NCBI GenBank assembly: GCA_016716905.1 | Contig: JADJUS010000004.1 | Location: 1,419,603-1,483,602 of the forward strand | Direction: 5' to 3' | DNA from: Acidobacteriota bacterium | GTDB lineage: Bacteria > Acidobacteriota > Vicinamibacteria > Vicinamibacterales > SCN-69-37 | Length of the DNA stretch: 64,000 bases | Shown here: piece by piece, positions 4,490 through 58,582 of the stretch | How positions within the stretch are numbered: position 1 is the first letter of the stretch | Layout of the letters: the number at the start of each line of letters is the position of its first letter | The notes under the pieces: generated by a model | What the model saw: the letters and a program-made list of their open reading frames with translations, nothing else | Databases searched by the model: none | What the model was told of the DNA's origin: nothing | Made by a program: the position numbers and the translations under genes

Positions 4490-7189
4490 GTGTTGACCCT
4501 GATCAAGCGTGTGTGTGTGGTGTTCGTCCTGATCGCGCTGACCGGCTTTGTGCCGGCATTGGTGCATGGCGCGGCGGGCCAGACGCCTCCCCCGGTGGCC
4601 CAGCAGGCCCAGCCGCCCGCCCAGCCGCAGGCGCCGGCGCTGCCCCCGACCGATATCGGCCCGGTACTCCGGAGTATCGAACTGAAGCTCGTCCCCGAGA
4701 ACGTGTTCACCACGGTCCCGTCCGAGACCTACCTCTACTACGTGCGCACGGAGGCGTCCCGGCCTCTCACGCGCGGCACGTGGGTGCCCTACAACGCGGC
4801 GACCGAGGCGTCGCTGCTTGCGGACTTCGATCGGCTGTTTGCGACGCCTTTTGTTGACGACATGAGGATCGAGGTCGTGGACAGCGTCTATCCGAACGGT
4901 GTCATCGGCAAGCAGGTGGTGTTCCTGATCGAAGAACGGCGCCGCATCAAGATTGTTGATTACCCTGGCTCAAAGGAAGTGGCCATCGCCGACATCGAGA
5001 GCAAGCTGAAGGAACTGAGCCTCGACCTGAGGCTGGATTCCCCGGTGGATGACGCCGTGGTGCGCCGCGTGGCGGGCGTGGTCAAGACCCTGTATGCCGA
5101 AAAGGGCTATCAGTTTGCCACCGTGACGCCGACGACGAAGCCCGTGGCCGGCGGTCCGAAGCTGGTGCATCTGTCGTTCAACATCGATCAAGGGCCGAAG
5201 GTCAGGATTCGCGAGGTGGTGTTCGACGGCAACAACGAGGTCAGCGACGGCGCCCTGCGCAAGCGGATGAAGGTCAACAAGGCGCGCGGGCTCCTGGGCT
5301 TCATCAGCGGCGGCGGCACCTATCAGGACGCCAAGTTTGCCGAGGATGCGCAAGCGCTTGAGGCGTATTTCCGTGAACAGGGGTACGTGTTCGCGAAGGT
5401 GGGCCAGCCGCAGATTGAGCCGATTGAAGACTCGGCCGACGGCAAGAGCCGGTGGGTGCGACTCCGGATCCCCGTGGACGAGCGGACGCGGTATCGCGTG
5501 AAGTCGGTGTCGGTGGCGGGCAACGAAAACGTACCGACGGCGGCCATTCTCTCCGTGTTCGAGAAGCTCAAGGTGGGCGACTACTACTCGGAGAAGCCCG
5601 TCCGAAAGGGTTACGAAAAGCTTCAGGAGTTTTACGGCAGCGCGGGGTTCTGGGAATTCACCATGGACCCGGAAGTGAAGCCGAACGACTGGAATCTGGA
5701 CACCGGCGAACCGATCCCCGGGTTTCAGGGCACGCCCGAAGTGGACGTGGTCATCAAGATCCAGGAAGGTGTGCGTTACTTCCTCAACCGGCTGACGTTC
5801 CTCGGCAACACCACCACGCGCGACTCGGTCATCCGGCGCGAGATGCGGTTGGTGGAAGGCGGCGTCTTCAACATGGAGTCGCTGAAGTTCAGCGTGCGCC
5901 GGTTGAACCAACTCGGCTACTTCAAGCCGCTCGAGAGCGAAGACTCGGTCAAGATCGAAAAGACTCCGAACGCCGACGGCAAGGTGGACGTGCGGCTGAA
6001 GTTTGAAGAGCAGAACCGCAACCAGTTGAGCTTCGGCGCCGGCATCTCGCAGTTCGAGGGTTTCTTCGGACAGCTGGGCTTCCAGACGTCCAACCTGATG
6101 GGCCGCGGCGAGACACTGTCGATTTCAGCGCAGAAGGGTTCGCAGGCGAAGAACTATCAGATCGCCTTCACCGAGCCGTTCCTGTTCGACCGCCCGATTA
6201 CCGCCGGCATCGACTTGTATTCGCGGGAGGTGAACTATCTCTTCCAGTTCACCCAGGGGTCGACCGGTGCCAACCTCCTCTTCGGGTTCCCGGTAAAGAG
6301 CTGGTCGCGGTTTTATATCGGCTACAGCCTTGAGAATGTGTCGGTCTCGAATATCTCCGACATCTACAAAGACCCGAACGTGCTGGCGGGGAACCCGCTG
6401 CTGAGTGAATCACTGCTCATCAACTCGAACGGCAAACGAGTGATCAGCAAGATTTCGCCCAGCATCATGTACAACACGATCAACGAGCCGATCTTCCCGA
6501 GCAGCGGCACCAAGTACACGGCGGCGTTTGACATCGCGGGTCTGGGCGGCGACACGTCGTTCCTCCGCGGACGACTTGAGGGCACCTGGTATCTGCCGGT
6601 CACGCCCCGGACGTCGTTCGGGTTCCGCTTGCAGGGTGAATACGTCAGGCCGTACGGCGACACCACGACCCTGCCCATTTTCGAAAAGCTTGTGCTCGGC
6701 GGCGAGTACAGCATTCGCGGGTTCGACCTGCGCAGCGTCGGCACGCGTGACGAGCGCTCGGGCCTGGTGCTGGGCGGCAACAAGACGCTGCTGTTCAACG
6801 GCGAATACATGATTCGCGTCGGCGGCCCTGTGCGCCTCGTGTTCTTCTATGACGCCGGTCAGGTGCGCGACATCGGCGAGCGGTTTGTGTGGAAGGAAAC
6901 CGTGTTCGAGACCGTGGCGGCCACGCCGCCCCTGCTGGCAGACCCTGGACAGGAAGTGGAACTGACGCCGGAAGGTTATGTGGCGCCCACGCCCACGCTT
7001 CGGGAGATCGGCAAGAGCTACGCGTTCAAGACGTCGATGGGCAGCGAAATCCGCTTCTTCATGCCGGTGCTCAACGTACCGTTCCGGCTGATCTTTGCGT
7101 ACAACCCGCAGCGTGGCCGGGTGTTCAACAACAACCTGCGGCCGCAGCCGAAGTTCACGTTCCGGTTTGCTGTGGGAACGACGTTCTGA
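4490..7189 (+). CDS. bamA: Outer membrane protein assembly factor BamA
   Basis: Signal-like N-terminus (LIKRVCVVFVLIALTGFVPALVHGAAG), a Pro/Gln-rich linker, POTRA-like repeats, and a C-terminal Omp85 barrel ending FRFAVGTTF. I chose the GTG at 4490 (or TTG at 4493) because the track start at 4352 overlaps clpC. Confidence 0.85.
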   Translation: MLTLIKRVCVVFVLIALTGFVPALVHGAAGQTPPPVAQQAQPPAQPQAPALPPTDIGPVLRSIELKLVPENVFTTVPSETYLYYVRTEASRPLTRGTWVPYNAATEASLLADFDRLFATPFVDDMRIEVVDSVYPNGVIGKQVVFLIEERRRIKIVDYPGSKEVAIADIESKLKELSLDLRLDSPVDDAVVRRVAGVVKTLYAEKGYQFATVTPTTKPVAGGPKLVHLSFNIDQGPKVRIREVVFDGNNEVSDGALRKRMKVNKARGLLGFISGGGTYQDAKFAEDAQALEAYFREQGYVFAKVGQPQIEPIEDSADGKSRWVRLRIPVDERTRYRVKSVSVAGNENVPTAAILSVFEKLKVGDYYSEKPVRKGYEKLQEFYGSAGFWEFTMDPEVKPNDWNLDTGEPIPGFQGTPEVDVVIKIQEGVRYFLNRLTFLGNTTTRDSVIRREMRLVEGGVFNMESLKFSVRRLNQLGYFKPLESEDSVKIEKTPNADGKVDVRLKFEEQNRNQLSFGAGISQFEGFFGQLGFQTSNLMGRGETLSISAQKGSQAKNYQIAFTEPFLFDRPITAGIDLYSREVNYLFQFTQGSTGANLLFGFPVKSWSRFYIGYSLENVSVSNISDIYKDPNVLAGNPLLSESLLINSNGKRVISKISPSIMYNTINEPIFPSSGTKYTAAFDIAGLGGDTSFLRGRLEGTWYLPVTPRTSFGFRLQGEYVRPYGDTTTLPIFEKLVLGGEYSIRGFDLRSVGTRDERSGLVLGGNKTLLFNGEYMIRVGGPVRLVFFYDAGQVRDIGERFVWKETVFETVAATPPLLADPGQEVELTPEGYVAPTPTLREIGKSYAFKTSMGSEIRFFMPVLNVPFRLIFAYNPQRGRVFNNNLRPQPKFTFRFAVGTTF

Positions 7190-7198
7190 GGAAAGAAA

Positions 7199-7246
7199 AG
7201 GACCTCTGAGGTTCAACCTCAGAGGTCCTGGTTACCTCAGAGGTCT
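7199..7246. repeat. ACCTCAGAGGT-core palindromic repeats; probable bidirectional terminator
   Basis: Perfect inverted repeat AGGACCTCTGAGGTT-c-AACCTCAGAGGTCCT (7199-7229) plus a third core copy at 7234-7244, between two convergent stop codons. Confidence 0.6.
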
Positions 7247-7253
7247 TGGACGC

Positions 7254-8430: not shown

Positions 8431-8498
8431 GGCCCTCAGTCCTATGGGTCGGGTAGTCGGGCGCCGCCCGATTACCCGATTCGATTCCAGGTTCAAGA

Positions 8499-15775: not shown

Positions 15776-17059
15776 ATGACTTCTTATCGCGCGAGTTGGG
15801 TACTGCCGATTAGCGGCCCGCCCCTGCGAGATGCCTGGGTGTCGGTCAGCGACGGCCTTGTGACCGAGGTCGGGACCGGCCGCGCGCCGAGTCCTGTCGT
15901 TGAATTGGGCGACGTCGCCCTGTTGCCAGGACTGGTCAACGCGCACACACACCTCGAATTGAGCTGGATGGCTGGGCTCGTGCCGCCGGCGGGGGCCATG
16001 GACGAGTGGATCAAGACGCTCCTGAGCGTGAGGCGCGCCGGGCCTGCCGGGGGAGACGAAACGGTCGTGACCGCCATGACGCGCGCCGTGGGCGACATCC
16101 TCGACACCGGCACGGCCCTGGTGGGCGACATCTCGAATTCGCTGATGTCGGTGCCCGTCTTCGCGGCGCGGGAACTGGCCTGCGTCGTCTTTCACGAGAT
16201 CCTCGGCTTCAACCCCGCGGACCCGCAGGCAATGGTCCGCGACGCCCAAGAAAGACGTCGGGTGTCATTAAAACGACCTCTGAGGTCGTTTCAGGATAGC
16301 GACTCGCTGAAACGACCTCAGAGGTCGTTTTCAGACACACCCGACGCCTTTTCTGCGGTCGTCGGGCACGCGCCCTACTCGACGGCGCCCGCGCTGTTCG
16401 CAGAAATCGCCGCGCAGCATCAGGGGCCGGCGCCCCTCTCCGTGCACATCGCCGAATCGGCCGAAGAAGTGGAGTTTCTTCACACCGGCCAGGGACCGAT
16501 GCGCACGCTGCTGGAAACACTCGGGGTGTGGACCGGTGCATGGCAGGTGCCACGGTGCGGCCCGCTGGAGTTCCTCAAGCGGCTGGGGTACCTCAAGCCA
16601 GGCACCTTGCTGGTCCACGGCGTCCACTTGACCGTTCGGGAACTCGAGCAGGCCCGCGACGCCGAGGCCGTCATCGTGACGTGCCCGAGAAGCAACACGT
16701 GGGTCGGAGGCGGTGTGCCGCCCATCGCCCGGTTTTATGGTGCGGGCGTGCCCGTGGCCATCGGCACCGACAGCCTCGCGTCCGCCGAGACCCTCAACAT
16801 GTTCGACGAATTGGCAGCGCTCCGACGGCTCGCGCCGGAAGTGGATGCCGCGCAACTGCTCGACAGTGCCACCAGGGTGGGAGCCGAGGCGCTCGGGTTT
16901 GGTCAGCACTACGGCACCATCAGCCCTGGACGTCAGGCCCAGCTGGTGTCCGTCGCGTTACCGGCCGGCGTCCGGGGCCGTCCTGAGGATGTGGAAGAAT
17001 ACTTGGTGAGTGGAGTGTCAGCCGCTGACGTCTCACGGCTGAACGTTCCGTCCCACTAA
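15776..17059 (+). CDS. Amidohydrolase superfamily deaminase (chlorohydrolase/aminodeoxyfutalosine-deaminase-like), carrying an in-frame palindromic-element insert
   Basis: LPGLVNAHTHLELS (HxH), SVHIAES, LLVHGVHL and IGTDS metal-ligand motifs. I chose the ATG at 15776 (MTSYRASWVLPI); the track start at 15521 overlaps mqnC. Confidence 0.7.
   Translation: MTSYRASWVLPISGPPLRDAWVSVSDGLVTEVGTGRAPSPVVELGDVALLPGLVNAHTHLELSWMAGLVPPAGAMDEWIKTLLSVRRAGPAGGDETVVTAMTRAVGDILDTGTALVGDISNSLMSVPVFAARELACVVFHEILGFNPADPQAMVRDAQERRRVSLKRPLRSFQDSDSLKRPQRSFSDTPDAFSAVVGHAPYSTAPALFAEIAAQHQGPAPLSVHIAESAEEVEFLHTGQGPMRTLLETLGVWTGAWQVPRCGPLEFLKRLGYLKPGTLLVHGVHLTVRELEQARDAEAVIVTCPRSNTWVGGGVPPIARFYGAGVPVAIGTDSLASAETLNMFDELAALRRLAPEVDAAQLLDSATRVGAEALGFGQHYGTISPGRQAQLVSVALPAGVRGRPEDVEEYLVSGVSAADVSRLNVPSH
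16248..16354. repeat. Composite nested palindromic element (outer GACGTCGGGTGTC-type arms, inner AAAACGACCTCTGAGGTCGTTTCAG arms) inside a CDS
   Basis: Inner perfect 25-nt arms at 16270-16294 and 16307-16331 with a 12-nt spacer. Outer imperfect arms at 16248-16266 and 16334-16354. Confidence 0.85.
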
Positions 17060-20128: not shown

Positions 20129-20149
20129 CGCAGGTCGATGACGAGCACG

Positions 20150-20204
20150 CTGGACCCTGGACCCTGGACCCGGACTCTGGACCCTGCACTCTGGACTCTG
20201 GACC
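20150..20204. repeat. Tandem heptanucleotide repeat (CTGGACC/CTGGACT, about 8 units)
   Basis: ctggacc ctggacc ctggacc cggact ctggacc ctgcact ctggact ctggacc, ending 1 nt before the miaA ATG. Confidence 0.85.
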
Positions 20205-29417: not shown

Positions 29418-31041
29418 AATCTGTCCAGAGTCCAGAGTCCAGAGTCCAGAGTCCCAAGGTCCAGCGTCCTGGGTCAGGACTGTGAAGCTGCGCGCTGAAT
29501 CTCGATGAGCCCATCGTGAGTGCGTTCGGGATCTGGGGCGCCAGGCGGTGGTGTCCAGACCAGGTCTGCCCCGCCGCGATCAGCAGGCGCGCGACGCCGA
29601 CATGATCCGCACCTGGCTGCGCGTGACCCCGGCCTTCCACAGCCCAGACGAGCGGCGAAGCGGCGAACATGCCGTCCAGCGCATTTACCGGTGCGCCATG
29701 TTCCAGAAGAACCCGCACGGCATCAACGCGCCCGGCCATCGCCGCGCGGTGCAACGGAGTCACCTGGTCCTTGTCCGCTGACTCCACGTCGAATCCACGC
29801 GCCAGCATCGTCTCAAGCACCAGCGCGTCCCCCCGTTCGGCCGCATTGTCCAGTAATCGGTGGTGCGCTGGGCGCAGTTGCTCAGCTAGGGTCGAGTCGA
29901 TTTGCAGCAGGGCGTCGGCGCCGGCCCGGTCGCCGCGTACGCAACAAGCGACGAATCGTTCGAGCGTGGACAACTCGTCTGTGGCGCCGCGGGCCAGCAG
30001 GACCGATCCAACGTCGGGTTTGCCCGAGAGTTCCGCCAGCGTGTGGGGTGTCAGACCGTCGGCGCGCCGCTGAAGGGGATCGGCCCCGTGTTGCAGGAGG
30101 TGCTCGACCATCGTCGTGTCCCATCGACGCGCCGCCACGTGCAGGGGCGCCTCTCCGTCGGCGCCCCACGTGAGGTTGGGATCCGCGCCGTGTTCGAGCA
30201 GCCACCGCGGTCCGTCAGGGTTCGTGGCCCACTGCATCATGTAGACGAGGGGAGGCACGCCTGCCGGAATGCCGTTCAGGTTGGCGCCGAATCGGTGCAA
30301 CAGCTCAAGCGCCGGAATGTTGCCGCCGCCACCGGCAATGTGCACCGTGACGCCGTCGGTGGGGACGGCGCCTGCTTCAAGCAGGACCTCTGCCAGCGGA
30401 AGGTGCCCCACTGCGCAGACGGCCGCCCACAGTGCCGTTCGCGGCAGTTCCGGATGCCAGTTCCAGTGGTATTCCGCATTCGGGTTGGCGCCAAGCGTGC
30501 ACAGGCGGCGCGCGATCGAGACGAGGTCATCCACCTGCGCAATGGCGTCGCGATGGAGGCACGTGTGGCACACGTAGAGCAGCGGTTCCCATTGCTGCGG
30601 TCCGGCGGCCTCGGTGGCCAGTGCGGGCTGTTCGGCGAGGCGCCGCTCGACGCCGGCCACGTCACCCAGTACCAGTGCGGTGTGCAACGAGGCCGACTTG
30701 ATGCCGGGGTGCCGGTCGAGAAGACGGAGCGCTCGCCCGGAGGCGCCGCCCGTGGCGCACCGGACGAACTCATCGACGGCGTCGCGGAACGACATCGTTC
30801 GCGTCTCAACCTCATCGCGCAGGGCGTTCCACGACGCAAAGCCGTGTTCACGGGCGATGACCGATTGCGCGTCGTGAAGCGCGAGGGACGTGCCGTTCTG
30901 CAGCGGCCGACCCGCGAAGGCCGGGAGCGCGGCGAACCGCTCAAGTGCAGACAGGTCACCCTCACGCGCGGCGTGAAGCAGCGACTTGGCGAGTTTCTTC
31001 AGATGATCGAGATTCGGACGATCGGGCAGTTGCGCGGACAT
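29407..31041 (-). CDS. Ankyrin-repeat protein
   Basis: Multiple ANK-like repeats (e.g. TPLHRAAMAGRVDAVRVLLEHGAPVNA, APLHVAARRWDTTMVEHLLQHGADP). ATG at 31041 (MSAQLPDRPNLDHLKKLAK). The last ~20 codons are read from the heptamer repeat, and the ORF overlaps the etfA 3' end by 11 nt, so the true C-terminus is uncertain. Confidence 0.7.
   Translation of the reverse strand: MSAQLPDRPNLDHLKKLAKSLLHAAREGDLSALERFAALPAFAGRPLQNGTSLALHDAQSVIAREHGFASWNALRDEVETRTMSFRDAVDEFVRCATGGASGRALRLLDRHPGIKSASLHTALVLGDVAGVERRLAEQPALATEAAGPQQWEPLLYVCHTCLHRDAIAQVDDLVSIARRLCTLGANPNAEYHWNWHPELPRTALWAAVCAVGHLPLAEVLLEAGAVPTDGVTVHIAGGGGNIPALELLHRFGANLNGIPAGVPPLVYMMQWATNPDGPRWLLEHGADPNLTWGADGEAPLHVAARRWDTTMVEHLLQHGADPLQRRADGLTPHTLAELSGKPDVGSVLLARGATDELSTLERFVACCVRGDRAGADALLQIDSTLAEQLRPAHHRLLDNAAERGDALVLETMLARGFDVESADKDQVTPLHRAAMAGRVDAVRVLLEHGAPVNALDGMFAASPLVWAVEGRGHAQPGADHVGVARLLIAAGQTWSGHHRLAPQIPNALTMGSSRFSAQLHSPDPGRWTLGLWTLDSGLWTDFRT
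29423..29478. repeat. Tandem heptanucleotide repeat (GTCCAGA, about 8 units)
   Basis: gtccaga x4, then gtcccaa ggtccag cgtcctg ggtcagg. It is the reverse complement of the 20150-20204 family and starts 6 nt after the etfA stop. Confidence 0.85.
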
Positions 31042-37915: not shown

Positions 37916-37978
37916 CAATCCACAATCAGCAATCACTCCATCCCGATCCTCAATCCTCCATCCTCAACCCTCAATTGG
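37916..37978. repeat. Nine tandem heptamers of CAATCNN/CCTCAAT type
   Basis: caatcca caatcag caatcac tccatcc cgatcct caatcct ccatcct caaccct caattgg. This is the same family as both arms of the 58204-58582 structure. Confidence 0.8.
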
Positions 37979-40561: not shown

Positions 40562-41476
40562 ATGCTGCTGTTTTCTTCTCCCCGATTTTCCGAACATTCA
40601 CCGCCCCCCGGCCACCCCGAACGAATCGAGCGCGGGCAGGTATTCGAGGCGGTTGCTGAGTCGTTTCGCGCCGGTGGCGGGGCGATCGGGCCGTCGCGGA
40701 TGGCCACGCGCGAGGAACTCGCACGAATCCACACAGCCGCGTACCTCGACACGATCGAGTCGTTGGCCGGACGCGCGGCCACGCTTGATGCCGACACGTT
40801 TACCAGTCCGGAGTCGTGGGACGTCGCGCGTCTGGCTGCCGGCGCGGCCATAGACGCGGCGCGCCACGCCTGGGCGACTGGCGAGGCCGCGATGGCCCTG
40901 GTGCGCCCTCCGGGGCACCACGCCGAACCGGACAAGGCGATGGGCTTTTGTCTCTACAGCAATATCGCGATTGCGGCTGCGGCCCTCCGGGCCGACGGGG
41001 TCGAACGCGTCGCGATCGTGGACTTTGATGTCCACCACGGAAACGGCACCCAGGCCGCCTTCTACGACGACCCGAATGTGTTCTTCGCGTCCAGTCATCA
41101 ATACCCCTACTGGCCCGGCAGCGGAGCCGCGACCGAACGGGGCACGGGTGCAGGAGAGGGCACCACGCTGAACCTGCCTCTGCGCGCTGGTGCGACGGAT
41201 GCGGACGTGCTGAGGGGCTATGAGCAGCACCTCCTGCCGTCGCTGCAGGCCTTCTCGCCTCAGGTGCTGTTGATCTCGGCCGGTTACGATGCGCACCAGT
41301 TCGACCCGCTCGGCGGCCTCCGGATGACCACCGAGGGTTTCCGCTCACTCGTCCGGATACTTGCCAACGTCGGCCGCCGCACCTGCGGTGGCCGGATCAT
41401 GGCCATCACCGAAGGCGGCTACCACCTCGACTCCCTCCGCGCGGGGGTCGAAGTCACGATCGACGAATTGAAGTAA
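40562..41476 (+). CDS. Histone deacetylase-family (class II HDAC/AcuC-like) deacetylase
   Basis: RPPGHHAEPDKAMGFCLYSN, DFDVHHGNGTQ, and the YPYWPGSG and EGGY motifs. Confidence 0.85.
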   Translation: MLLFSSPRFSEHSPPPGHPERIERGQVFEAVAESFRAGGGAIGPSRMATREELARIHTAAYLDTIESLAGRAATLDADTFTSPESWDVARLAAGAAIDAARHAWATGEAAMALVRPPGHHAEPDKAMGFCLYSNIAIAAAALRADGVERVAIVDFDVHHGNGTQAAFYDDPNVFFASSHQYPYWPGSGAATERGTGAGEGTTLNLPLRAGATDADVLRGYEQHLLPSLQAFSPQVLLISAGYDAHQFDPLGGLRMTTEGFRSLVRILANVGRRTCGGRIMAITEGGYHLDSLRAGVEVTIDELK

Positions 41477-41612
41477 GGGGACGGGTGTCGATCTGTGGAA
41501 AATTCCGGAACCGGAAAAGACGTCGGGTATCTTTTTCGTTGCCGGTGAAGCGAAAAAGACACCCGACGTCTTTTCCGATGCGCGAGTTTTCCACAGATCG
41601 ACACCCGTCCCC
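41477..41612. repeat. 136-nt nested palindromic element (outer GGGGACGGGTGTCGATCTGTGGAAAA arms, inner GGAAAAGACGTCGGGT arms)
   Basis: Outer 26-nt perfect arms at 41477-41502 and 41587-41612. Inner 16-nt perfect arms at 41513-41528 and 41561-41576. It starts 1 nt after the HDAC stop and ends 14 nt before the leuS GTG. Confidence 0.85.
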
Positions 41613-41626
41613 CTTAAAATATCGGT

Positions 41627-44158
41627 GTGAGTTACCATCCGCAAGACATCGAGAAGAAGTGGCAGAAGCACTGGGCTGACACCCGGGCGTTTGAGGTCAC
41701 CGAAGACCCGACCAGGCCGAAGTTTTATTGCCTGGAGATGTTCGCGTATCCGTCCGGGCACGCGCATGTCGGCCACGTCCGCAACTACATGATCGGCGAC
41801 ATCATGGCCCGGTCCATGCGGATGCGCGGGTTCAACGTGCTGCATCCCTTCGGGTGGGACGCGTTTGGCCTGCCGGCGGAAAACGCCGCCATCAAGAACA
41901 ACCTGCACCCGGAACAGTGGACGCTCGACAACATCGCCCACATGAAAGGGCAGTTGCAGCGTCTGGGCATCAGCTACTCGTGGGAGCGCGAGTTGGCCAC
42001 CTGCATGCCCGACTACTACCGCTGGAATCAGTGGCTGTTCACACGCATGTTCGAACGTGGGCTTGCCTATCGCCGGCGCTCGAACGTGAACTGGTGCGAA
42101 AGCTGCCAGACCGTGCTCGCCAACGAACAGGTCGTTGATGGCGGCTGCTGGCGTTGCGGCACGCCCGTAACCCAGCGGGAGTTGGAACAGTGGTGCCTGC
42201 GCATCACCGCCTACGCCGATGAACTCCTGAAGGCCGCCGAAGGTCTGACGCAGTGGCCCGAGAAGGTGCTGACGATGCAGCAGAACTGGATCGGGCGCTC
42301 CGAAGGCGCCCGCGTCAGTTTCGCCCCGACCCCAGGACCCCAGGACCCCGGGACTCCGATCGAAGTCTTCACGACCCGCATCGACACCATCTTCGGCGCG
42401 ATGTTCGTGCTGCTCGCGCCAGAGCATCCGCTGGTCGAACAGTTCGCCGCCCAGTCGGCAGACCCAGCGGCCTTCCGTGCGCAGGTCGCGAAGTTCCGCG
42501 GTCAGGATAAAACTGCGCGTATGAGCGGCGAAGTCGAGAAAGAAGGCTTCGATACCGGACGCACGGCGGTGAATCCCTTCACAGGCCAGCCCGTGCCCGT
42601 GTGGGTGGCCAACTTCGTGCTCGGCGAATACGGCACGGGTGCGGTCATGGGTGTGCCCGGCCACGACCAGCGCGACTTCGAGTTCGCCCGCAAGTACAAC
42701 CTCCCCGTGCGCATCGTCGTCCAGCCTGAAGGCGAGTCGCTTGACGCGGACACGATGACTGCCGCCTACGACGGCGACGGCGTGCTCGTGGAGTCGGGGC
42801 AGTGGAACGGCCTGGCGTGGCCCGAGGCGAATCGGAAGATGACCGCCGAAGCGAAGGCGCGCGGCATCGGCGAAGGCACCGTGCAGTATCGGCTGAAGGA
42901 CTGGGGCATTTCACGGCAGCGTTACTGGGGCACGCCGATCCCGATCATTCACTGCCCGTCGTGTGGAATGGTTGCGGTGCCAGACGCAGACCTCCCAGTG
43001 GTGTTGCCCAAGGTCACGGAGTTTACCGGCCGCGGCAGCTCGCCACTCGCGCACGTGCCCGAGTTCGTGAACGTGGCCTGCCCCAAATGCGGCGGCGCAG
43101 CCAGACGCGAGACGGACACGATGGACACGTTCGTGGACTCGTCGTGGTACTTCTATCGCTTCTGCGATCCGCATAACGATCAGTTGCCGTTCGATCCGGC
43201 CAAGGTGGCGTATTGGGGCCCGGTCGATTTCTACAGCGGAGGCGTGGAACACGCCATCCTCCACCTGATCTATTCGCGGTTCTTCAGCCGCGTGTTCCGT
43301 GACATCGGGCTGGTCACCATCGATGAACCGTTCACGCGCCTGCTGACGCAGGGCATGGTGCTGAAAGATGGCGCCGTCATGTCCAAGTCCAAGGGCAACG
43401 TCGTGGATCCCGACGACATGATCGCGTCGTTTGGCGCCGACGCACTGCGCTTGTACGTGATGTTCGTCGCCCCTCCCGAGAAGGAAGTGGAATGGACCGA
43501 TACCGGCCTTGAAGGCGCGTTCCGTTTCCTCAATCGCGTGTGGCGCGTCGTGGTGCATACCTCCGCAGCTGCACAGCAGGCGCCAGCCACTTCGGGTCTG
43601 GTGTTTGACGATGCGGAACGGGCGATGCGGCGGAAGACGCACAGCACCATCCGGCGCGTCACGCAGGACATCAACCCCCGTGTGCATCTGAACACGGCGG
43701 TCGCCGCGTTGATGGAACTGGTGAACGAGCTGTACGCCTTCTGTGAGCTGCGCGGTGCGCGTCCGCTGGGCGTGGATGATGAACCGCCGGCCGTCGTGGA
43801 GAGGCCAGAGACCGCAGCGGTGTTGCGCGAGGCGACCGAGGCTCTGGTCCTCATGTTGTCGCCCTTCACCCCGCACATGTGCGAGGAACTCTGGGAGCAC
43901 CTGGGCCATACGGACGGTGTGGTGGCGGCCGGGTGGCCATCGTGCGACGAGGATGCCGCGCGCGAGGAATCGATTGAATTGCCCGTCCAGGTCAATGGCA
44001 AGGTGCGGGGACGCATCCTGGTGCCGGTGGATTCCACCGTTGAAGCCAATATTGAGGTGGCCCTGGCATCGCCGGGTGTGATGCCCTACCTCCAGGGCAA
44101 AACCATCGTGAAAATTGTCCACACCCCGGGCCGGCCGGTGAGTATCGTGGTCAAATGA
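41627..44158 (+). CDS. leuS: Leucyl-tRNA synthetase
   Basis: [13 protein letters not shown] (HIGH), FTTRIDT of the editing-domain junction, and VMSKSKGN (KMSKS). GTG start. Confidence 0.95.
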
Positions 44159-44727
44159 CAGGACAGACTGTGAGGGTGAAGATGACCACGATGAGACGGG
44201 TGCTGGCCGGGATGATGGCCGTGGCCTGTGTCGCCGCCTCCGGATGCGGATACGCACTCTCGGGCCGGGGGTCGTTCCTGCCCGACTACATCCAGGTGGT
44301 GGGCGTACCGGCGTTCATCAACAATTCATCGGTGTTTGAGATCGATCGCGTCCTGACCGATCGCGTTCGCACGGAGTTTGGCGGACGCGGCAAGTACCGC
44401 GTGCAGCCGGATACCAACAACGTGGATGCGATCCTCATTGGCACCATCACCAGTGTGCGAACGGACGGCTCGTCGTTCACGGCCGACAGCCAGGCGTCCC
44501 GGGTTCGACTCACGGTCACCGCGTCATTCCAGTTTCGGGATGTTCGCGACAATAAGGTCCTCTGGTCCAACCCGTCGATGCGTTACACGGAAGAATATGA
44601 GACCGCCAGTGCCGGCAGCACGGCCGGGGATGCGACGGCGTTTTTCGGACAGAACGCCAATGCCATGGAGCGCATGGCCCAGAACTTCGCTCGTTCCGTC
44701 GTGACCTCCATCCTCGAGGCGTTTTAG
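44155..44727 (+). CDS. lptE: LPS-assembly lipoprotein LptE
   Basis: Lipobox VAASGC followed by [12 protein letters not shown]. It sits in the conserved leuS-lptE-holA order. Internal ATGs at 44182 and 44191 are alternative starts. Confidence 0.7.
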
Positions 44728-44736
44728 GACACACCC

Positions 44737-45786
44737 GTGCCCAATCTTGACGTGGCCGCCCTTCGTAAACATCTGGCGGCCCGGACGCTGAGCCGCGTGT
44801 ACGTCTTCCTCGGCGAAGACGTGAAACTTGTGGATGCGATGGTGGATGCCGTGGAGGCCACCGTGGACGTCGCTGACCGGCCATTTGCCGTAGACCGCGT
44901 GTATGCCGGCGAAAACGGCGGCGCGCCGGTGGACATCGCGGCGTCCTGCCGCAGCCTGCCCATGCTCGGCGATCGCCGCCTCGTCATTGTCATGCGTGCC
45001 GAACGGTTGTTGAAGCCCAAGCGAGCCGGCAAGGCGACCGACGAGGAAGAAGAGGTGGAAGACACGCCCGCGGACGGGGAGAGCGCAGCCACAGACCTCA
45101 CACCGCTGGAAGACTACGTGGCCGCTCCCTCGGAGTTTGCGACGCTGGTGTTTGTGGCGACTGAAATCGATCGGACGCGCCGGTTCACCAAGAAACTGAT
45201 CGAGAAGGCGCAGGTGGTGGAGTTCAAGGGGATCCGCGCCGAGGCACGATCCGGTCCCGCTGGAGCGAATGCCGCGATGGCGCAGGCGCGGACGTTTGTG
45301 CAGGACGAGATGACACGCGAGGGCCGGACCATGGAACCGGCTGCCGTGGCAATGCTCACCAGGCGCTCGGGCGCTGACATCTCCAAGTTGAGAGGCGACA
45401 TCGAGCGGCTGCTGCTCTTTGTGGCCGGGCGGAAGGCCATCACCGTGGCTGACGTGGAGAGTGTGGCGTCCGACGGCGCCACGGTTCAGGACGACTGGGC
45501 CGTGACCAACGCCATCAGCGCCGGTGATGCGGCGCTGGGGTTGAGGGAGTTGGCGCTGCGTTTCGAGCGCGGCGATTCGCCTCACGGCATCGTGGGGCAG
45601 TTGCGGTGGTGGGTGTCGAACCAGTTGGCGTCTGGCGCGCCCGATCGCGTCAAGCCTGCCCTGGATGCGCTGTTGCGCACCGACCTGGCGCTCAAAAGCT
45701 CAGGAGGGGAGGACCAGGTGCTGCTTGAGCGCCTGGTGGTGGAACTGACCGGGCGACCGCTTACGCGGTCGCGGTCTTCTTGGTGA
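44737..45786 (+). CDS. holA: DNA polymerase III delta subunit HolA
   Basis: The VYVFLGEDVKLVD N-terminus and the PMLGDRRLVIV and C-terminal GQLRWW motifs are delta-like. Synteny after lptE. GTG start. The 3' end overlaps the convergent rpsT by 26 nt. Confidence 0.75.
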   Translation: MPNLDVAALRKHLAARTLSRVYVFLGEDVKLVDAMVDAVEATVDVADRPFAVDRVYAGENGGAPVDIAASCRSLPMLGDRRLVIVMRAERLLKPKRAGKATDEEEEVEDTPADGESAATDLTPLEDYVAAPSEFATLVFVATEIDRTRRFTKKLIEKAQVVEFKGIRAEARSGPAGANAAMAQARTFVQDEMTREGRTMEPAAVAMLTRRSGADISKLRGDIERLLLFVAGRKAITVADVESVASDGATVQDDWAVTNAISAGDAALGLRELALRFERGDSPHGIVGQLRWWVSNQLASGAPDRVKPALDALLRTDLALKSSGGEDQVLLERLVVELTGRPLTRSRSSW

Positions 45787-46036
45787 GCTTCTTGACGATC
45801 CGCGACTTGTAACGGCCGGCCGTGTTGTCGTGGATGATCTTCTTCGCCGACATCTTGTCGATCAGCGAGAAGGTCTTGCTGAGCGAGGCCTTGGCGGCTG
45901 CGGTGTCGCCCGAGTCAATGGCCGCGCGGATGGCCTTGAGGCCGCTCCGGAGCTTCGATCGGAGTTCGCGGTTGTGTTCGGTGCGCTTGATGGTCTGGCG
46001 ATTGGCTTTTACCGCCGATTTGTGTCGAGTGGCCAC
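45761..46036 (-). CDS. rpsT: 30S ribosomal protein S20
   Basis: MATRHKSAVKANRQTIKRTEHNRELRSKLR is a typical S20 N-terminus. Confidence 0.9.
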   Translation of the reverse strand: MATRHKSAVKANRQTIKRTEHNRELRSKLRSGLKAIRAAIDSGDTAAAKASLSKTFSLIDKMSAKKIIHDNTAGRYKSRIVKKLTKKTATA

Positions 46037-46110
46037 TGCTGGAAAACCTCACTTATTGGGATCCTGACGTGGACCCGAAACATCGAAGTATACCATTGCT
46101 GGCCCCACTC

Positions 46111-46539
46111 CTAGCCCCACCCGGACCCCTCGCCGCCCTCCTTGGCCTGGCGTAGGCGCCGTTTCTCGCGTTTTCCAGGGGCCACCTCCGGGCCGCGGGT
46201 GCGCTGGGGGCCGGCCAGCCGGGCCATTTCCAGCATGGCCTTCACCTGGGGTGAGGGCTCGGGTGTGACGTCTTCGTAGAGCGCCCTGGCCAGAGCCTTG
46301 GCCATGTGGTGGCTGGCCAGGCCCAGCACGATCACCCGCTGGCGCACTCCGCGGGGCCGCGAAACCTCCACCACGTCGCCGAGCCTGAGCGGCCGCTGCG
46401 CTTTTGCCGGCTGGCCGTTGACCTCCACCTTGCCGCCCTTGCAGGCCCGTTGCGCTTCCGACCGCGTCTTGCACAAACACGCCACGTCCAGCCAGACATC
46501 GAGGCGGCAGGGGGTGCTGATTTCGGGATCGGGGCTCAT
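46111..46539 (-). CDS. S4-domain RNA-binding protein (Hsp15/HslR-like)
   Basis: RLDVWLDVACLCKTRSEAQRACKGGKVEVNGQPAK S4 motif with a basic C-terminal tail. Confidence 0.7.
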   Translation of the reverse strand: MSPDPEISTPCRLDVWLDVACLCKTRSEAQRACKGGKVEVNGQPAKAQRPLRLGDVVEVSRPRGVRQRVIVLGLASHHMAKALARALYEDVTPEPSPQVKAMLEMARLAGPQRTRGPEVAPGKREKRRLRQAKEGGEGSGWG

Positions 46540-46541
46540 AA

Positions 46542-46625
46542 GGGGACGGGTGTCTACCTGTGGAAAACTCCCGGAACAACGTTACCCGAGTTCCCGGAGT
46601 TTTCCACAGGTAGACACCCGTCCCC
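46542..46625. repeat. 84-nt hairpin element, variant arm GGGGACGGGTGTCTACCTGTGGAAAA
   Basis: About a 35-bp stem with one mismatch and a 14-nt loop. The arms differ from the other copies by GAT>TAC on the left and the complementary ATC>GTA on the right. Confidence 0.85.
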
Positions 46626-46651
46626 CTCTCATTCGAGATCCAGGAAGAGAG

Positions 46652-46722
46652 GGGGACGGGTGTCGATCTGTGGAAAACTCGCCGGTTGAAAACGAGTTTC
46701 CCACAGATCGACACCCGTCCCC
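46652..46722. repeat. 71-nt hairpin element, arm GGGGACGGGTGTCGATCTGTGGAAAA
   Basis: 30-bp stem with one mismatch and an 11-nt loop (ccggttgaaaa). It ends 15 nt before the M14 peptidase ATG. Confidence 0.85.
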
Positions 46723-46737
46723 TTTATCATTTGGGTC

Positions 46738-49536
46738 ATGGCCAAGAGACTGCTGCTCGGACTGCTCCTGATCGCAAGTTCTTATGGCGCCACCCCGCAG
46801 GCCCAGACGCGACCGGCGTCAGGAATCACATCTCCGGCGGCCGAGTTTGGCCACGCGTTTGGCGACGACTACTTCCTGGCCACCTACCGGCAGATCGAGG
46901 CGTATTGGCGGAAGCTCGACCGCGAGTCGGACCGGATGGTTCTTGAGGACATCGGCAAGACGGCCGAGGGCCGCTCGCAACTGATGGCCATTGTCACCTC
47001 ACCGGCCAATCACAAGAACCTCGCGCGCTACAAAGAGATCTCGCGTCGCCTGGCGTTGGCCGAAAACCTGACCGATGAACAGGCGCGCGCCCTCGCGAAG
47101 GAAGGCAAGGCCGTGGTCTGGATTGACGGCGGCCTGCACGCCACTGAGACACTCGGCGCACAGCAACTGGGCGAGATGGTCTACCAGATGGTCAGCCGCA
47201 ATGACGAGGAAACGCTGCGGATACTGGACGACGTGATCATTTTGTTTGTGCATGCGAATCCGGACGGCAACGATCTTGTGGCCGACTGGTACATGCGGGC
47301 ATCCGATCCCAACGAGCGCAGCCTGGCGAATCTGCCGCGGCTCTACCAGAAGTACATCGGACACGACAACAACCGCGACTTCTTCGCGTCCACGCAACCC
47401 GAAACCGAGAACATGAACCGCGTGCTCTATCACGAGTGGTTCCCGCAGATTCTCTACAACCACCATCAGAGCGGGCCGGCGGGCACCATTCTGTGGTCAC
47501 CGCCGCTGCGCGATCCGTTCAACTACAACCAGGATCCGCTGCTGGTGCTCGGCCTGCAGACGGTCGGGCTTGCGCTGCACACGCGCCTGGCCGCTGAAGG
47601 CAAGCCGGGCGCGACCATGCGATCGGGTGGTCCGTACGACGGCTGGTGGAACGGCGGCATCCGCAACACCGCCGCGTTCCACAACACCATTGCGATCCTC
47701 ACGGAGATGATCGGCAGCCCCACGCCGATGCGCGTGCCGCTCGTGATGGAGCGGCAGCTGCCCACCAGTGACCTGACGTTTCCCGTGGCGCCGCAGGAAT
47801 GGAGATTCCGACAGTCGATCGACTATTCGGTAGCCTGTAACCGCGGCGTGCTCGACAGCGCATCACGGATGAAGGAAAACTATTTGTACAACCGCTACGT
47901 GATGGGGAAAAACTCGATCCAGCGCGGCAGTGAGGATTCGTGGACGCCGCGGCCTCACCGGTATGCGGATGTCGCGCGCGAATTCGCCTCGAGTCCGGCC
48001 GGGCGAGCGGCTGGTGCCGGCAGAGGTGGCGGACGCGGCGGCGCCTCGCCCGAGGCTGATGCAGCGCTCTGGGCCGCGCTCCGCAAGCCCGAATACCGCG
48101 ACCCGCGCGGTTACATCCTGCCCTCGAACCAGCCGGACTTTCCGACGGCCGTCGAGTTCATCAATGCGCTGCGCGAGGTCGGCATCAAAGTGCATCGCGC
48201 GACATCGTCGTTCACGGTGGCCGGCAAAACGTATCCGCCAGGTTCCCTCGTCGTCATGACCAACCAGGCGTTTCGGCCGCACGTGATCGACATGTTCGAG
48301 CCCCAGGATCATCCCGACAATATTCCGTCTCCGGGCGCGCCGCCCACGCCGCCGTATGACAGCGCAGGATGGACGCTGGCGTACCAGACGGGCATCGAAT
48401 TCGATCGCATCCTCGACGGATTCACCGGGCCGTTTGAAGAAGTCAAAGACTGGAACATCGCGTTTCTCAAGGGGACGATGCCGGCTTCCCTGGCCGGCGG
48501 ATACCTGCTGAGCCGCGAGGTGCTTAATTCATTTGCCGCCGTGAATCAGTTGACCGCCGGAGGCGCCAGTGGCGTGTCAGTCACGACGGGGCCAGTGACG
48601 GTGGACGGCAAAGTGTTTCCTGCAGGCACGTTCCATGTGGCAGAGAGCCAGCGCACGAGATTGGAAGCAGTCCTCGGGCCCCTTGGGATGCACGCGGTGC
48701 CCTTCGGAATGAAGATGAACGTTCTGGCGCCAGTGCGCGCCCCACGCGTCGGACTGTGGGATCAATACGGCGGTTCGATGCCTGCCGGATGGACGCGCTG
48801 GATTCTGGAGCAGTTCACGTTCGACTTCACTCGAGTGTTCGCACCTCGGCTCGACGCGGGCAATCTCAACGCCGACTTCGACGTGCTGGTGTTTGTGTCC
48901 GGCGCCATTCCGGGAACCGGTGCCGGCGGAGGGCGCGCAGGCGGGGCGGGCCGCGGCGGTGCCGCAGGGCCGGCGCCAAACATCCCGGCAGAATACCGCG
49001 ATCAAGTCGGAAGCATCTCGGCCCGCACCATTGCGCAGCTGCGCCAGTTTGTCGAAAACGGCGGTCGCATTGTGGCGATTGGCAGTTCGGCGACCAACCT
49101 CGCGCAACATCTCGGCCTTCCCATTGAAAACCACCTGACCGAGCCTGGAAGCGCGCCCGGCGCGCCGCCGCAAGCGCTGCCACGCACCAAGTACTACGTG
49201 CCCGGATCGGTGCTGGGAGCGCGAGTTGACACGACGAGTCCGCTGGCCGCCGGCATGAAGGAGCGAACCGACTTCTTCTTCGACAACAGTCCTGTCTGGA
49301 GACTGGCTCCCGACGCCGCCTCAAAGGGCGTGATGCCCGTCGCGTGGTTCGATTCGCCGGCGCCCCTGCGCAGCGGCTGGGCATGGGGCCAGGACTATCT
49401 CGACAAGGGCGTCATCGCGATAGACGCGCAGGTGGGCAAGGGGCGTGTGTTCCTCTTTGGCCCCGAAATCCTGATGCGCGCGCAGCCCCGTGGTACGTTC
49501 AAGTTCCTCTTCAACGCGATCTATTGGGGGCAGTGA
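46738..49536 (+). CDS. M14-family zinc carboxypeptidase-like protein with a large C-terminal extension
   Basis: Signal peptide MAKRLLLGLLLIASSYG. HxxE zinc motif in VWIDGGLHATETLG, and ANPDGN. 932 aa. Confidence 0.75.
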   Translation: MAKRLLLGLLLIASSYGATPQAQTRPASGITSPAAEFGHAFGDDYFLATYRQIEAYWRKLDRESDRMVLEDIGKTAEGRSQLMAIVTSPANHKNLARYKEISRRLALAENLTDEQARALAKEGKAVVWIDGGLHATETLGAQQLGEMVYQMVSRNDEETLRILDDVIILFVHANPDGNDLVADWYMRASDPNERSLANLPRLYQKYIGHDNNRDFFASTQPETENMNRVLYHEWFPQILYNHHQSGPAGTILWSPPLRDPFNYNQDPLLVLGLQTVGLALHTRLAAEGKPGATMRSGGPYDGWWNGGIRNTAAFHNTIAILTEMIGSPTPMRVPLVMERQLPTSDLTFPVAPQEWRFRQSIDYSVACNRGVLDSASRMKENYLYNRYVMGKNSIQRGSEDSWTPRPHRYADVAREFASSPAGRAAGAGRGGGRGGASPEADAALWAALRKPEYRDPRGYILPSNQPDFPTAVEFINALREVGIKVHRATSSFTVAGKTYPPGSLVVMTNQAFRPHVIDMFEPQDHPDNIPSPGAPPTPPYDSAGWTLAYQTGIEFDRILDGFTGPFEEVKDWNIAFLKGTMPASLAGGYLLSREVLNSFAAVNQLTAGGASGVSVTTGPVTVDGKVFPAGTFHVAESQRTRLEAVLGPLGMHAVPFGMKMNVLAPVRAPRVGLWDQYGGSMPAGWTRWILEQFTFDFTRVFAPRLDAGNLNADFDVLVFVSGAIPGTGAGGGRAGGAGRGGAAGPAPNIPAEYRDQVGSISARTIAQLRQFVENGGRIVAIGSSATNLAQHLGLPIENHLTEPGSAPGAPPQALPRTKYYVPGSVLGARVDTTSPLAAGMKERTDFFFDNSPVWRLAPDAASKGVMPVAWFDSPAPLRSGWAWGQDYLDKGVIAIDAQVGKGRVFLFGPEILMRAQPRGTFKFLFNAIYWGQ

Positions 49537-51125: not shown

Positions 51126-51126
51126 C

Positions 51127-51246
51127 GAGAACGACCTCAGTGCCAAAACGACCTCTGACTGGCAAAACGACCTCTGAGGTAATTACCGACGACAATTGCC
51201 GGTAATTACCTCAGAGGTCGTTTTGGTTTCAGAGGTCGTTTTGTTT
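51127..51246. repeat. Nested palindromic structure made of five AACGACCTC(T/A)G-core copies
   Basis: Perfect 26-nt arms CAAAACGACCTCTGAGGTAATTACCG (51163-51188) and CGGTAATTACCTCAGAGGTCGTTTTG (51200-51225) with an 11-nt spacer. Further half-copies lie outside on both sides. Confidence 0.85.
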
Positions 51247-51330
51247 TGAGCCATTTTCGCCATTTTGATGTACCCAACGGCCCACCGCCGGCGGGTGTCT
51301 GGGTATCGTCGTCGGGGAGGTGTGCCTGGG

Positions 51331-58203: not shown

Positions 58204-58582
58204 CTGCAATAGCGCTATTGAGGATGGGAGCGCCTGGAAATTGAGGGTTGAGGATTGAGCGATTGAGGATCGGGATGTGACGGATTGCAGATGTGGGAGT
58301 GAGGATGGCAATTGTGGGGTTGGGGGATTGAGGAATTGTCGGATTGACGATGGTGCGATTTCGGGATGGACCGTGTCTGAAGTGTGGAGAGTGCGTGGGG
58401 AGCCCGCGTCCCCATCTCGCGATCGCGCCATCGGCAATCTAACGATCCCGCCATCCCTCAATCTAACGATCCCGCCATCCGCAATCTAACGATCCCGCCA
58501 TCCCTCAATTGCCGATCGACAATCAGCCATCAGCCGTCCGTCCCATCCCGATCCTCAATCGCTCAATCCGCAATCCTCAATG
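58204..58582. repeat. About 380-bp imperfect inverted structure of ATTGAGG/CCTCAAT heptamer runs, with an internal 23-24-bp x3 tandem repeat
   Basis: The left arm is rich in ATTGAGG units and the right arm in CCTCAAT/CAATC units. Central hairpin TGGGGA-gcccgcg-TCCCCA at 58396-58414. Tandem CAATCTAACGATCCCGCCATCC(CT/G) x3 at 58435-58505. 14-bp palindrome CAATAGCGCTATTG at 58207-58220. Confidence 0.8.

Follow-up and report, generated by a model that had tools for sequence, protein, structure and literature searches.

A nested palindromic element at an HDAC-leuS junction and its modular hairpin family in uncultured Vicinamibacterales

Architecture of the palindrome between HDAC and leuS

The window analyzed here, a stretch of 64,000 nt from an Acidobacteriota genome (assembly GCA_016716905.1, contig JADJUS010000004.1), carries a near-perfect palindrome of 136 nt at positions 41477-41612, where it fills the gap between a histone-deacetylase-family gene (HDAC) and leuS. 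Each arm of the palindrome measures 62 nt; the two are 90% complementary and separated by 12 nt. The HDAC stop codon TAA (41474-41476) abuts the element, its AA coinciding with the conserved terminal AR of the repeat family described below, and the leuS GTG lies at 41627, 14 nt after the right arm, exactly where an earlier inspection of the letters without database searches (the sequence-only reading) had placed these boundaries. A palindrome search likewise confirmed its perfect outer 26-mers, GGGGACGGGTGTCGATCTGTGGAAAA at 41477-41502 and the reverse complement at 41587-41612; at up to three mismatches (<=3), this 26-mer has 6 matches in the window, compared with 0.00 expected from shuffles. 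Folding computation of the element as RNA yielded a single long hairpin of -109 kcal/mol (z = -13.8).

Comparison across the family resolved the element into two modules, an outer hairpin (A) and a B hairpin doublet seated at the exact centre of A. The inner pair at 41513-41528/41561-41576 and a third, imperfect pair, which had been described as separate modules, are both real, but together they form one 26-nt B arm with a single A/C mismatch. The features of the junction are as follows.

41474..41476, + strand: HDAC stop codon TAA, whose AA serves as the terminal AR of the element (sequence and open reading frames)
41475..41614, no strand: whole composite A[B] including the conserved terminal AA...CT, filling the HDAC-leuS gap (position -2 is A in 113/137 arms of the family, position -1 is R in 122/137)
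41477..41502, + strand: left arm of the A module, GGGGACGGGTGTCGATCTGTGGAAAA (26-mer search, 0 mismatches; arm consensus from 137 arms)
41503..41512, no strand: left spacer TTCCGGAACC, about half complementary to the right spacer and of equal length (10/10); on each side, 16 nt separate the 26-nt A arm and the 13-nt B core
41513..41538, + strand: left B arm GGAAAAGACGTCGGGTATCTTTTTCG, itself a small palindrome (AAAGAC..GTCTTT), with one A where the family has G (family comparison)
41539..41550, no strand: apical loop TTGCCGGTGAAG, unique to this copy (sequence and fold)
41551..41576, - strand: right B arm CGAAAAAGACACCCGACGTCTTTTCC (family comparison)
41577..41586, no strand: right spacer GATGCGCGAG (sequence)
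41587..41612, - strand: right arm of the A module, the perfect reverse complement of the left (26-mer search)
41615..41629, + strand: TAAAAT box, 6 nt, then the leuS GTG (in the empty sites of L120 and L121, TAGAAT, 6 nt, GTG)

The right boundary of the insertion falls exactly between ...GTCCCCCT and TAAAAT (...CCCCCT, then TAAAAT), and the family consensus runs two bases past GGGG...CCCC, as AR...YT. An A/T-rich target, which the flanking letters had suggested, was not borne out by the other copies, in which only the A at -2 and the R at -1 are conserved, both belonging to the element itself.

Fold-back mis-assembly could have produced such a palindrome, and some contigs (L005/L130 and L131; other loci are likewise given L numbers) do run into the reverse complement of the left flank, while L002/L125 and L076 have N gaps. 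However, 8/10 independent contigs of the same species, obtained from different samples and with different assemblers, carry the 136-nt element in identical form, correctly flanked left and right, and orthologous copies occur in many metagenome-assembled genomes (MAGs). An assembly artefact is thus effectively excluded, its probability being negligible. Apparent polymorphism within the species at HDAC-leuS came from the N-gapped scaffold L002/L125 and the fold-back assemblies L005/L130 and L131 and was unusable, and the difference between L076 and L082 was an N gap. Many metagenome contigs end within an element, at which assemblers fold back or leave N gaps. In practice, elements that break or fold back assemblies are a hazard for binning and annotation of this clade, and they may give rise to false gene fusions and wrong start or stop calls.

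Distribution and composition of the repeat family

One genome per prokaryotic species was scanned for the A arm pattern, and a second scan covered metagenomes. The genome scan returned 56 stretches, all from 11 uncultured MAG assemblies of Acidobacteriota/Vicinamibacterales type originating from Lake Baikal, Antarctica, wastewater, and soil, and the metagenome scan contributed 53 further stretches, with the window's own species represented by wastewater contigs. Altogether, 92 distinct complete A hairpins were recovered from the MAG assemblies and metagenome contigs. Based on 137 arms, the A arm follows a 31-nt consensus, AR-GGGGACGGGTGTC-NNN-CTGTGGRAAACTC (also AR-GGGGACGGG...), which written out reads A-R-GGGGACGGGTGTC-(GAT)-CTGTGG-RAAA-CTC, the bracketed triplet being variable. 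This consensus is identical in all 11 assemblies, without a species-specific variant. The searched viral contigs and plasmids contained no copy of the family, and in a literature search that covered the arm sequences and Vicinamibacter repeats, neither these sequences nor any repeat family of Vicinamibacteria was found described. A, B, and a third module, C, form a lineage-specific repeat system of a sub-clade of uncultured Vicinamibacterales, not previously described in the searched literature.

A hairpins occur in size classes of 56 nt (the shortest copy), ~71 nt (with a variable loop of 11-13 nt), ~84 nt (with an extra CTCCNGGAAC stem), and ~96-139 nt (with a B or C unit at the centre), the last comprising copies of ~97-111 and of 122-139 nt. 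The B unit is GGAAAAGACGTCGGGTGTCTTTTT...AAAAAGACACCCGACGTCTTTTCC, found both standalone and nested; the C unit, GAAAACGACCTCTGAGGT(C/A)GTTTTC, is also found standalone and nested, as a single unit or an inverted doublet. Every arm of B or C forms a small palindrome of its own (AAAGAC..GTCTTT for B; AAAACGACCTC.GAGGTCGTTTT for C), unlike the A arm, which is not palindromic, and B, C, and the inner part of A share the layout GGAAAA-stem-loop-stem-TTTTCC. Loops and spacers differ in every copy, while the arms are invariant. In all 26/26 composites the nested B or C unit is centred within 2 nt (exactly in 16), and an A hairpin within another A hairpin was seen once (L051). The proposal of a dispersed, modular, non-coding palindromic family therefore holds, with A, B, and C found alone as well as nested, and beyond the window as well as within it; nothing marks the 41477-41612 copy as the founder that it had been supposed to be.

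Partial tandem forms, in which one arm and the interior are repeated beside a full hairpin, were also observed, as left-arm duplications in L030, L049, L059 (two sites), L060, L035, L028, and L055 and as right-arm duplications in L018, L019, L020, L039, and L050, with up to three repeats in L035 at a period of 93 nt. Replication slippage and aborted copying at the hairpin are both possibilities for their origin.

Within the window, the modules combine as A[B] at 41477, plain A at 46542 and 46652, B[C] at 16248, and clusters of C at 51126-51250 and 7186-7250. The recurrence of the outer module at 46542-46722, noticed earlier, corresponds to two hairpins, and the inner module does form the outer arms of the element at 16248-16354, which is intragenic and in-frame. 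These other copies are listed below.

46540..46627, no strand: A hairpin of the 84-nt type with a compensated TAC/GTA arm variant, flanked by CTCAT at 46535-46539 and CTCAT at 46628-46632 (a single CTCAT at the empty site in L009, L095, and L103)
46650..46724, no strand: A hairpin of the basic 71-nt type, ending 15 nt before the ATG of an M14 peptidase gene (arm search)
16248..16354, no strand: B arms around a C doublet (B[C]), 107 nt, translated in-frame inside an amidohydrolase gene (B-core search, Pfam)
51126..51250, no strand: C-unit cluster, a C doublet between further C half-units, directly after the stop of a MarC-family gene and ending in T runs (family comparison)
7186..7250, no strand: C-like units GGACCTCTGAGGT / ACCTCAGAGGTCC directly after the stop of a bamA-like gene (family comparison)

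Both C clusters follow a gene stop, have T runs at their ends, and resemble a series of bidirectional terminators. A lone half-site at 44727-44742, also pointed out in the sequence-only reading, is attributable to chance, because it has 2 mismatches over 13 nt, a level at which 4.3 matches are expected per window and 2 were seen beyond the true arms.

Several copies lie inside genes. Gene-context calling by heuristics based on open reading frames (ORFs) and third-codon-position GC content (GC3) was too noisy for the A copies, and only Pfam-verified cases were used. Besides the amidohydrolase copy, the following were found.

L037 1289-1372 and L042 6001-6084, 84 nt: UvrC, at the same codon position in two species (in-frame, Pfam)
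L062 4864-5001, 138 nt: MutS2 (in-frame, Pfam)
L101 775-861, 87 nt: MetH (in-frame, Pfam)
L027 5814-5888, 75 nt: GT4 glycosyltransferase (in-frame, Pfam)
L039 1801-1856, 56 nt: LpxK (in-frame, Pfam)
L032 1449-1583, 135 nt: ORF of 449 aa (in-frame)
L018 5629-5745: MeaB and a methylmalonyl-CoA-epimerase-like domain joined in one open frame

The A arm is free of stop codons in all six frames, and 67/92 hairpins are stop-free in at least four frames (>=4), compared with ~15% of shuffles. In-frame copies lie mostly in inter-domain linkers, and their length is a multiple of three in 5/6 single-hairpin cases. Because all three reading frames are used, conservation acts at the nucleotide level.

A structured non-coding RNA gene, or a riboswitch-like leader of leuS, would be compatible with the very stable fold, with the compensatory changes described below, and with the location of the element immediately upstream of leuS. 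Nevertheless, we consider this explanation effectively excluded, being highly improbable, since no Rfam family reaches threshold: the whole window gave 0 matches at the gathering threshold, and at E <= 10 the locus matched only generic long-hairpin miRNA models, all of them sub-threshold. Furthermore, the hairpin recurs at dozens of unrelated loci in both orientations, including coding regions, it is a plain perfect hairpin without conserved loops or junctions, and relatives possess leuS without it.

Occupied and empty sites, constrained arms, and exchanged centres

HDAC-leuS junctions were sampled without bias, through HDAC homologues. In this sample the site is occupied in a close relative (93% amino-acid identity), by A around a short C centre, whereas the more distant L119, L120, and L121 all have it empty. 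Altogether, occupied sites are those of the window, L043, L041, L050, L104, and L116. In L119, the HDAC TGA overlaps the leuS GTG, and the gap between the two genes measures 23 nt in L120 and 4 nt in L121. Elsewhere, L021 has an empty site where four other species carry an element, and the hairpin 46540-46627, which lies in the gap between an S4-domain gene and the M14 peptidase gene, is absent from L009, L095, L103, and L078; the last of these is 98.5% identical to the window across 41633-46625, yet has one hairpin where the window has two. The presence/absence polymorphism of the family is real. The sequence-only reading had named confinement of the modules to the window and uniform occupation of orthologous sites as outcomes that would speak against it; modules were found beyond the window and occupancy differed between relatives, which leaves that reading standing in this respect.

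The gap between the divergent S4-domain and M14 peptidase genes (46480-46740), together with its orthologues in L009, L033, L041, L047, L072, L078, L095, L100, L103, and L109, is a hot spot: it holds one or two hairpins, which vary in subtype and in their point of insertion. A short GAGATCGGGGAAGAGAG motif present in the gap also borders copies at a second locus, and the S4-domain gene may have had its N-terminus reshaped.

The 63 element clusters from the genome scan represent 27 chromosomal sites, of which 12 are common to 2-6 species. Between orthologous copies, the two 29-nt arms are identical at 53-58 of 58 positions, whereas identity is 79-91% in the mostly coding 120-nt flanks, and the interiors either cannot be aligned or differ in type. 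At HDAC-leuS, the window has B at the centre, and L043/L116 and L041/L114 have a C unit; in L050, neither B nor C is recognisable at the centre of the A hairpin, after which comes an additional, degenerate right arm. Other shared sites likewise hold B in one species, C in another, and neither in others. The 41477-41612 copy is a derived composite, since sister species hold A with a C centre at the same site.

Arm pairing has left its own record of substitution. We counted 49 arm positions altered identically on both sides, and a non-consensus triplet at arm positions 14-16 shows the same variant in both arms in 16/26 elements, with 11 different variants. These compensatory double changes indicate that the hairpin is real in vivo, as DNA or as RNA, and that the pairing of the arms matters. 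Recent copying does not account for arms this invariant, since every copy has loops and spacers of its own. To judge from this pattern, arms better conserved than their flanks, at sites shared between species, do not resemble freely decaying copies of a selfish MITE (miniature inverted-repeat transposable element).

Mobility, known repeat systems, and local role

The earlier suggestion of an element that, if mobile, is MITE- or REP-like (REP, repetitive extragenic palindromic sequence) is partly supported, by the insertion polymorphism, but neither a transposase nor a general target-site duplication was found. Among 59 complete copies, flank matches were at the random level for k = 2-9 at all offsets, and 58/59 had no direct repeat of any length. 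The exception is the hairpin 46540-46627, the sole demonstrably recent insertion, which is flanked by CTCAT/CTCAT where relatives have a single CTCAT. Transposases of the RAYT (REP-associated tyrosine transposase) and TIRYT (terminal-inverted-repeat-associated Y1 transposase) types were searched for with an HUH...Y..NP regular expression and by tblastn, with 11 queries of these types drawn from the PMC3733652 supplement, and none was detected in the window or in 109 element-bearing loci. The search for a RAYT, IS200-type, or other transposase proposed with the sequence-only reading thus came back empty over the window and ~0.9 Mb of element-bearing DNA. A weak tblastn match in L032 (E = 8e-4) fell inside the 449-aa host ORF that carries an in-frame element and was rejected; ORFs between close hairpins (L011, L065, L107, L113) were host genes (a beta-propeller protein, a thioredoxin-like protein, LpxK), and lone arms at contig ends (L013, L016, L054, L056, L057, L036), considered as ends of insertion sequences (IS), were hairpins cut by the contig end. 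Pfam analysis of 50/52 candidate ORFs of the window identified only housekeeping functions and no transposase. No long element with A-arm ends was found between or beside the arms. Integron attC sites were also considered, and the element ends showed no GTTRRRY/RYYYAAC cores, nor did the window contain an integrase.

One explanation for these observations is a classical MITE with terminal inverted repeats (TIRs), derived from a DDE transposon, possibly Tn3-like, in which the A arms would be the TIRs of a lost or unsampled autonomous element that makes a 5-bp duplication. The arms are true terminal inverted repeats of ~31 nt that start with GGGG and carry GGAAAA near positions 21-26, an outline that we presume to resemble the ends of the Tn3 family, and the recent CTCAT insertion provides the expected 5-bp repeat. 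Tn3 ends measure 38-40 bp, start with GGGG, have an inner TAAG-type motif, and generate a 5-bp duplication. The conserved A arm, in contrast, stops at ~29-31 nt without a TAAG-type motif, and the 5-bp repeat is confined to 1/59 copies. Together with the absence of a transposase gene between or beside the arms, the absence of any plasmid match, and the exact centring of nested units, which is not a property of DDE insertion, these discrepancies make such an origin quite improbable.

Comparison with other small repeats yields partial likenesses. TIR-type MITEs (Correia/NEMIS, ERIC, RUP, Nezha) and Tn3-derived miniature elements (TIMEs) resemble the family in having TIRs, a length below 500 bp, no coding capacity, positions beside genes, and strong RNA hairpins; they differ in that the present family has no consistent target duplication, no parental IS that could be found, no TA or otherwise AT-rich target, and arms that are not decaying. 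RAYT-associated REPs of Proteobacteria, including their REPIN doublets and bacterial interspersed mosaic elements (BIMEs), likewise consist of short, GC-rich repeats that form hairpins, number from tens to hundreds of copies, and combine modules into mosaics. They share with the family long vertical persistence at orthologous sites, positions after gene 3' ends (B and C), and the lack of target duplication, and the inverted doublets of B and C are REPIN-like. The differences are that no RAYT was found beside the copies, that many copies are intragenic (that at 41477-41612 is extragenic), and that the host belongs to the Acidobacteriota. Intragenic REPs have been reported, and in Anabaena variabilis, Thermomicrobium roseum, and Halothiobacillus neapolitanus REP dimers occupy the middle of longer palindromes that are conserved; also described are acidobacterial TIRYTs whose long TIRs start with a GGGGWSAS motif (Di Nocera et al. 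2013, PMC3733652). The start of the A arm, GGGGACGG, matches this motif imperfectly, at 7/8 positions, but no TIRYT gene flanked by A arms was found; unlike the nested REP dimers, the outer palindrome A also stands alone in many copies, and B and C compete for the same centre.

Rickettsia palindromic elements (RPEs) occur in-frame within genes (PMC10969869), and homology to them was not expected, the likeness being one of behaviour only. Like RPEs, the hairpins are palindromic, ~70-150 nt long, intergenic as well as in-frame in housekeeping genes, stop-free, without a known transposase, and located at the same positions in related species. Unlike RPEs, to which they bear no sequence relationship, they reside in a free-living, GC-rich acidobacterium, use all three frames rather than one conserved peptide, and nest in a modular fashion not described for RPEs; moreover, the copy at 41477-41612 is intergenic. 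The dispersed repeat SPRITE mimics an intrinsic terminator (PMC10969869), and B, C, and inner A are similarly built from an A-tract, a GC stem, and a T-tract and sit after gene ends. They differ from SPRITE in a U tract of only 4-5 nt, in the absence of a terminator call from the consensus scan, and in being symmetric (bidirectional) and nested in another repeat. The element is accordingly a small palindromic repeat of the known REP/MITE/RPE-like class that departs from canonical REPs and from TIR-type MITEs in defining features. The family is unusual in its three interlocking modules, the exact centring of its nested units, and arms conserved above the coding level across species.

On balance, we lean toward reading 41477-41612 as one copy of a lineage-specific set of small non-coding hairpin repeats of the REP/MITE/RPE kind, mobilised in trans. 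The comparisons show that an A-type hairpin entered the junction between the HDAC stop and the leuS start in an ancestor of the sub-clade; since then, the 31-nt A arms have been held almost invariant and the centre has been exchanged, being C in sister species and the B doublet in the window. Copies may have spread in the form of single-stranded hairpin DNA, through an enzyme whose gene lies elsewhere in the genome. An HUH/Y1 enzyme of the RAYT/TIRYT type would be the first candidate, given the lack of a general target duplication and the occurrence of TIR-associated Y1 transposases in Acidobacteria. Centres could have been swapped at the hairpin tip or via microhomology of the shared A/T tracts, and the arms would be kept through recognition by a trans-acting protein rather than by recent copying.

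Several observations weigh against this account. No Y1/HUH or other transposase lies beside any copy in the ~0.9 Mb of element-bearing loci or the 64-kb window, and RAYTs are normally flanked by their own repeats. The sharing of sites across species implies that mobility is slow or largely past, and the 5-bp direct repeat at the one clear recent insertion points to a DDE-type rather than an HUH mechanism. The A arm, at 31 nt, is not self-palindromic, so that only the inner B and C match a palindromic REP unit, and its consensus over the 137 arms lacks a GTAG or CGTC end tag, the CGTC of B being internal. Consensus scans of 41200-41900 and 46300-46950 found no canonical terminator or sigma-70 promoter. 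Finally, invariant arms combined with unique loops fit purifying selection for a host function at least as well as they fit ongoing transposition.

Such a host function is possible, if somewhat unlikely: the A arms could form a cis element, a hairpin or sequence-specific binding site recognised by a factor of the host (for example an RNase, a termination factor, or a protein of the nucleoid or of DNA topology), with each copy under purifying selection. The family would then be essentially immobile now, with rare new copies or centre swaps arising by recombination or template switching between copies. This explanation accommodates arms that exceed neighbouring coding DNA in cross-species conservation and stay invariant while each loop is unique, one arm consensus in all 11 assemblies, the 12/27 sites common to 2-6 species, and the missing transposase. 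The bipartite arm, with two conserved blocks around a free, compensated triplet, is as expected for a protein contacting two duplex grooves, and the GGAAAA...TTTTCC layout and the 3'-end position of B and C are terminator-like. However, a single cis role is hard to reconcile with the variety of contexts, which range from co-directional and divergent intergenic positions to in-frame positions, in three frames, in uvrC, mutS2, metH, lpxK, and a glycosyltransferase gene. Copy number at one site differs between close genomes, the empty sites of relatives contain no replacement structure, and no canonical terminator was detected.

A less probable variant, which we regard as doubtful, is that A, B, and C are host-retained, interchangeable modules moved or exchanged by a mechanism that targets the tip of the extruded DNA hairpin. 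This would explain the exact central nesting, the different centres at one site, and arms that, also within genes, exceed the surrounding coding DNA in nucleotide conservation. If true, palindromes would spread by a transposase-independent route or a novel enzyme, and the modules might form a multi-copy terminator/insulator code read by one protein.

Returning to the repeat copy at HDAC-leuS, our working hypothesis for its most likely local role is that the -109 kcal/mol hairpin would mark a transcript boundary where the HDAC operon meets leuS, in the manner of a terminator or through RNA processing or stabilisation. A gene 3' end precedes standalone B (7/10) and C (8/11) by 2-116 nt, within 50 nt in 13/15 cases, and the stems of B, C, and inner A are followed by just UUUU(C), a U tract of 4-5 nt. 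On the leuS side, the TAAAAT/TAGAAT box stands 6 nt before the GTG at the occupied site and at two empty ones (window 41615-41629; L120 ~2127-2141; L121 ~1984-1999), a position that suggests a leuS mRNA without a leader or with a very short one. In L050, 2 nt lie between the end of the element and the leuS ATG; leuS of L119 overlaps with its upstream neighbour.

Small palindromic repeats (REP, ERIC, RPE, MITE) are common, and how most of them spread and persist is unsettled. The A/B/C family offers a clean natural experiment, with the same sites across ~10 species, frozen arms, exchanged centres, and empty sites. Its hosts are free-living Acidobacteria abundant in soil and wastewater, with in-frame copies in DNA-repair and envelope genes.

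Two further features of the lineage were observed. Arrays of 7-nt units (CTGGACC/GTCCAGA, CAATCCT, GATTGAG...) at 20145-20204, 29423-29454, 37916-37975, and 58240-58581 of the window and at 1049-1201 of L120 constitute a separate class of intergenic repeat; upstream of an RNA methyltransferase gene, at 58240-58581, the units make up a large imperfect inverted repeat together with a tandem array of 23/47 nt. At 8457-9752, one stop-to-stop frame contains FabA/FabZ-like, hexapeptide, and LpxA C-terminal domains, and may correspond either to fused fabZ and lpxA or to two genes that share a frame.

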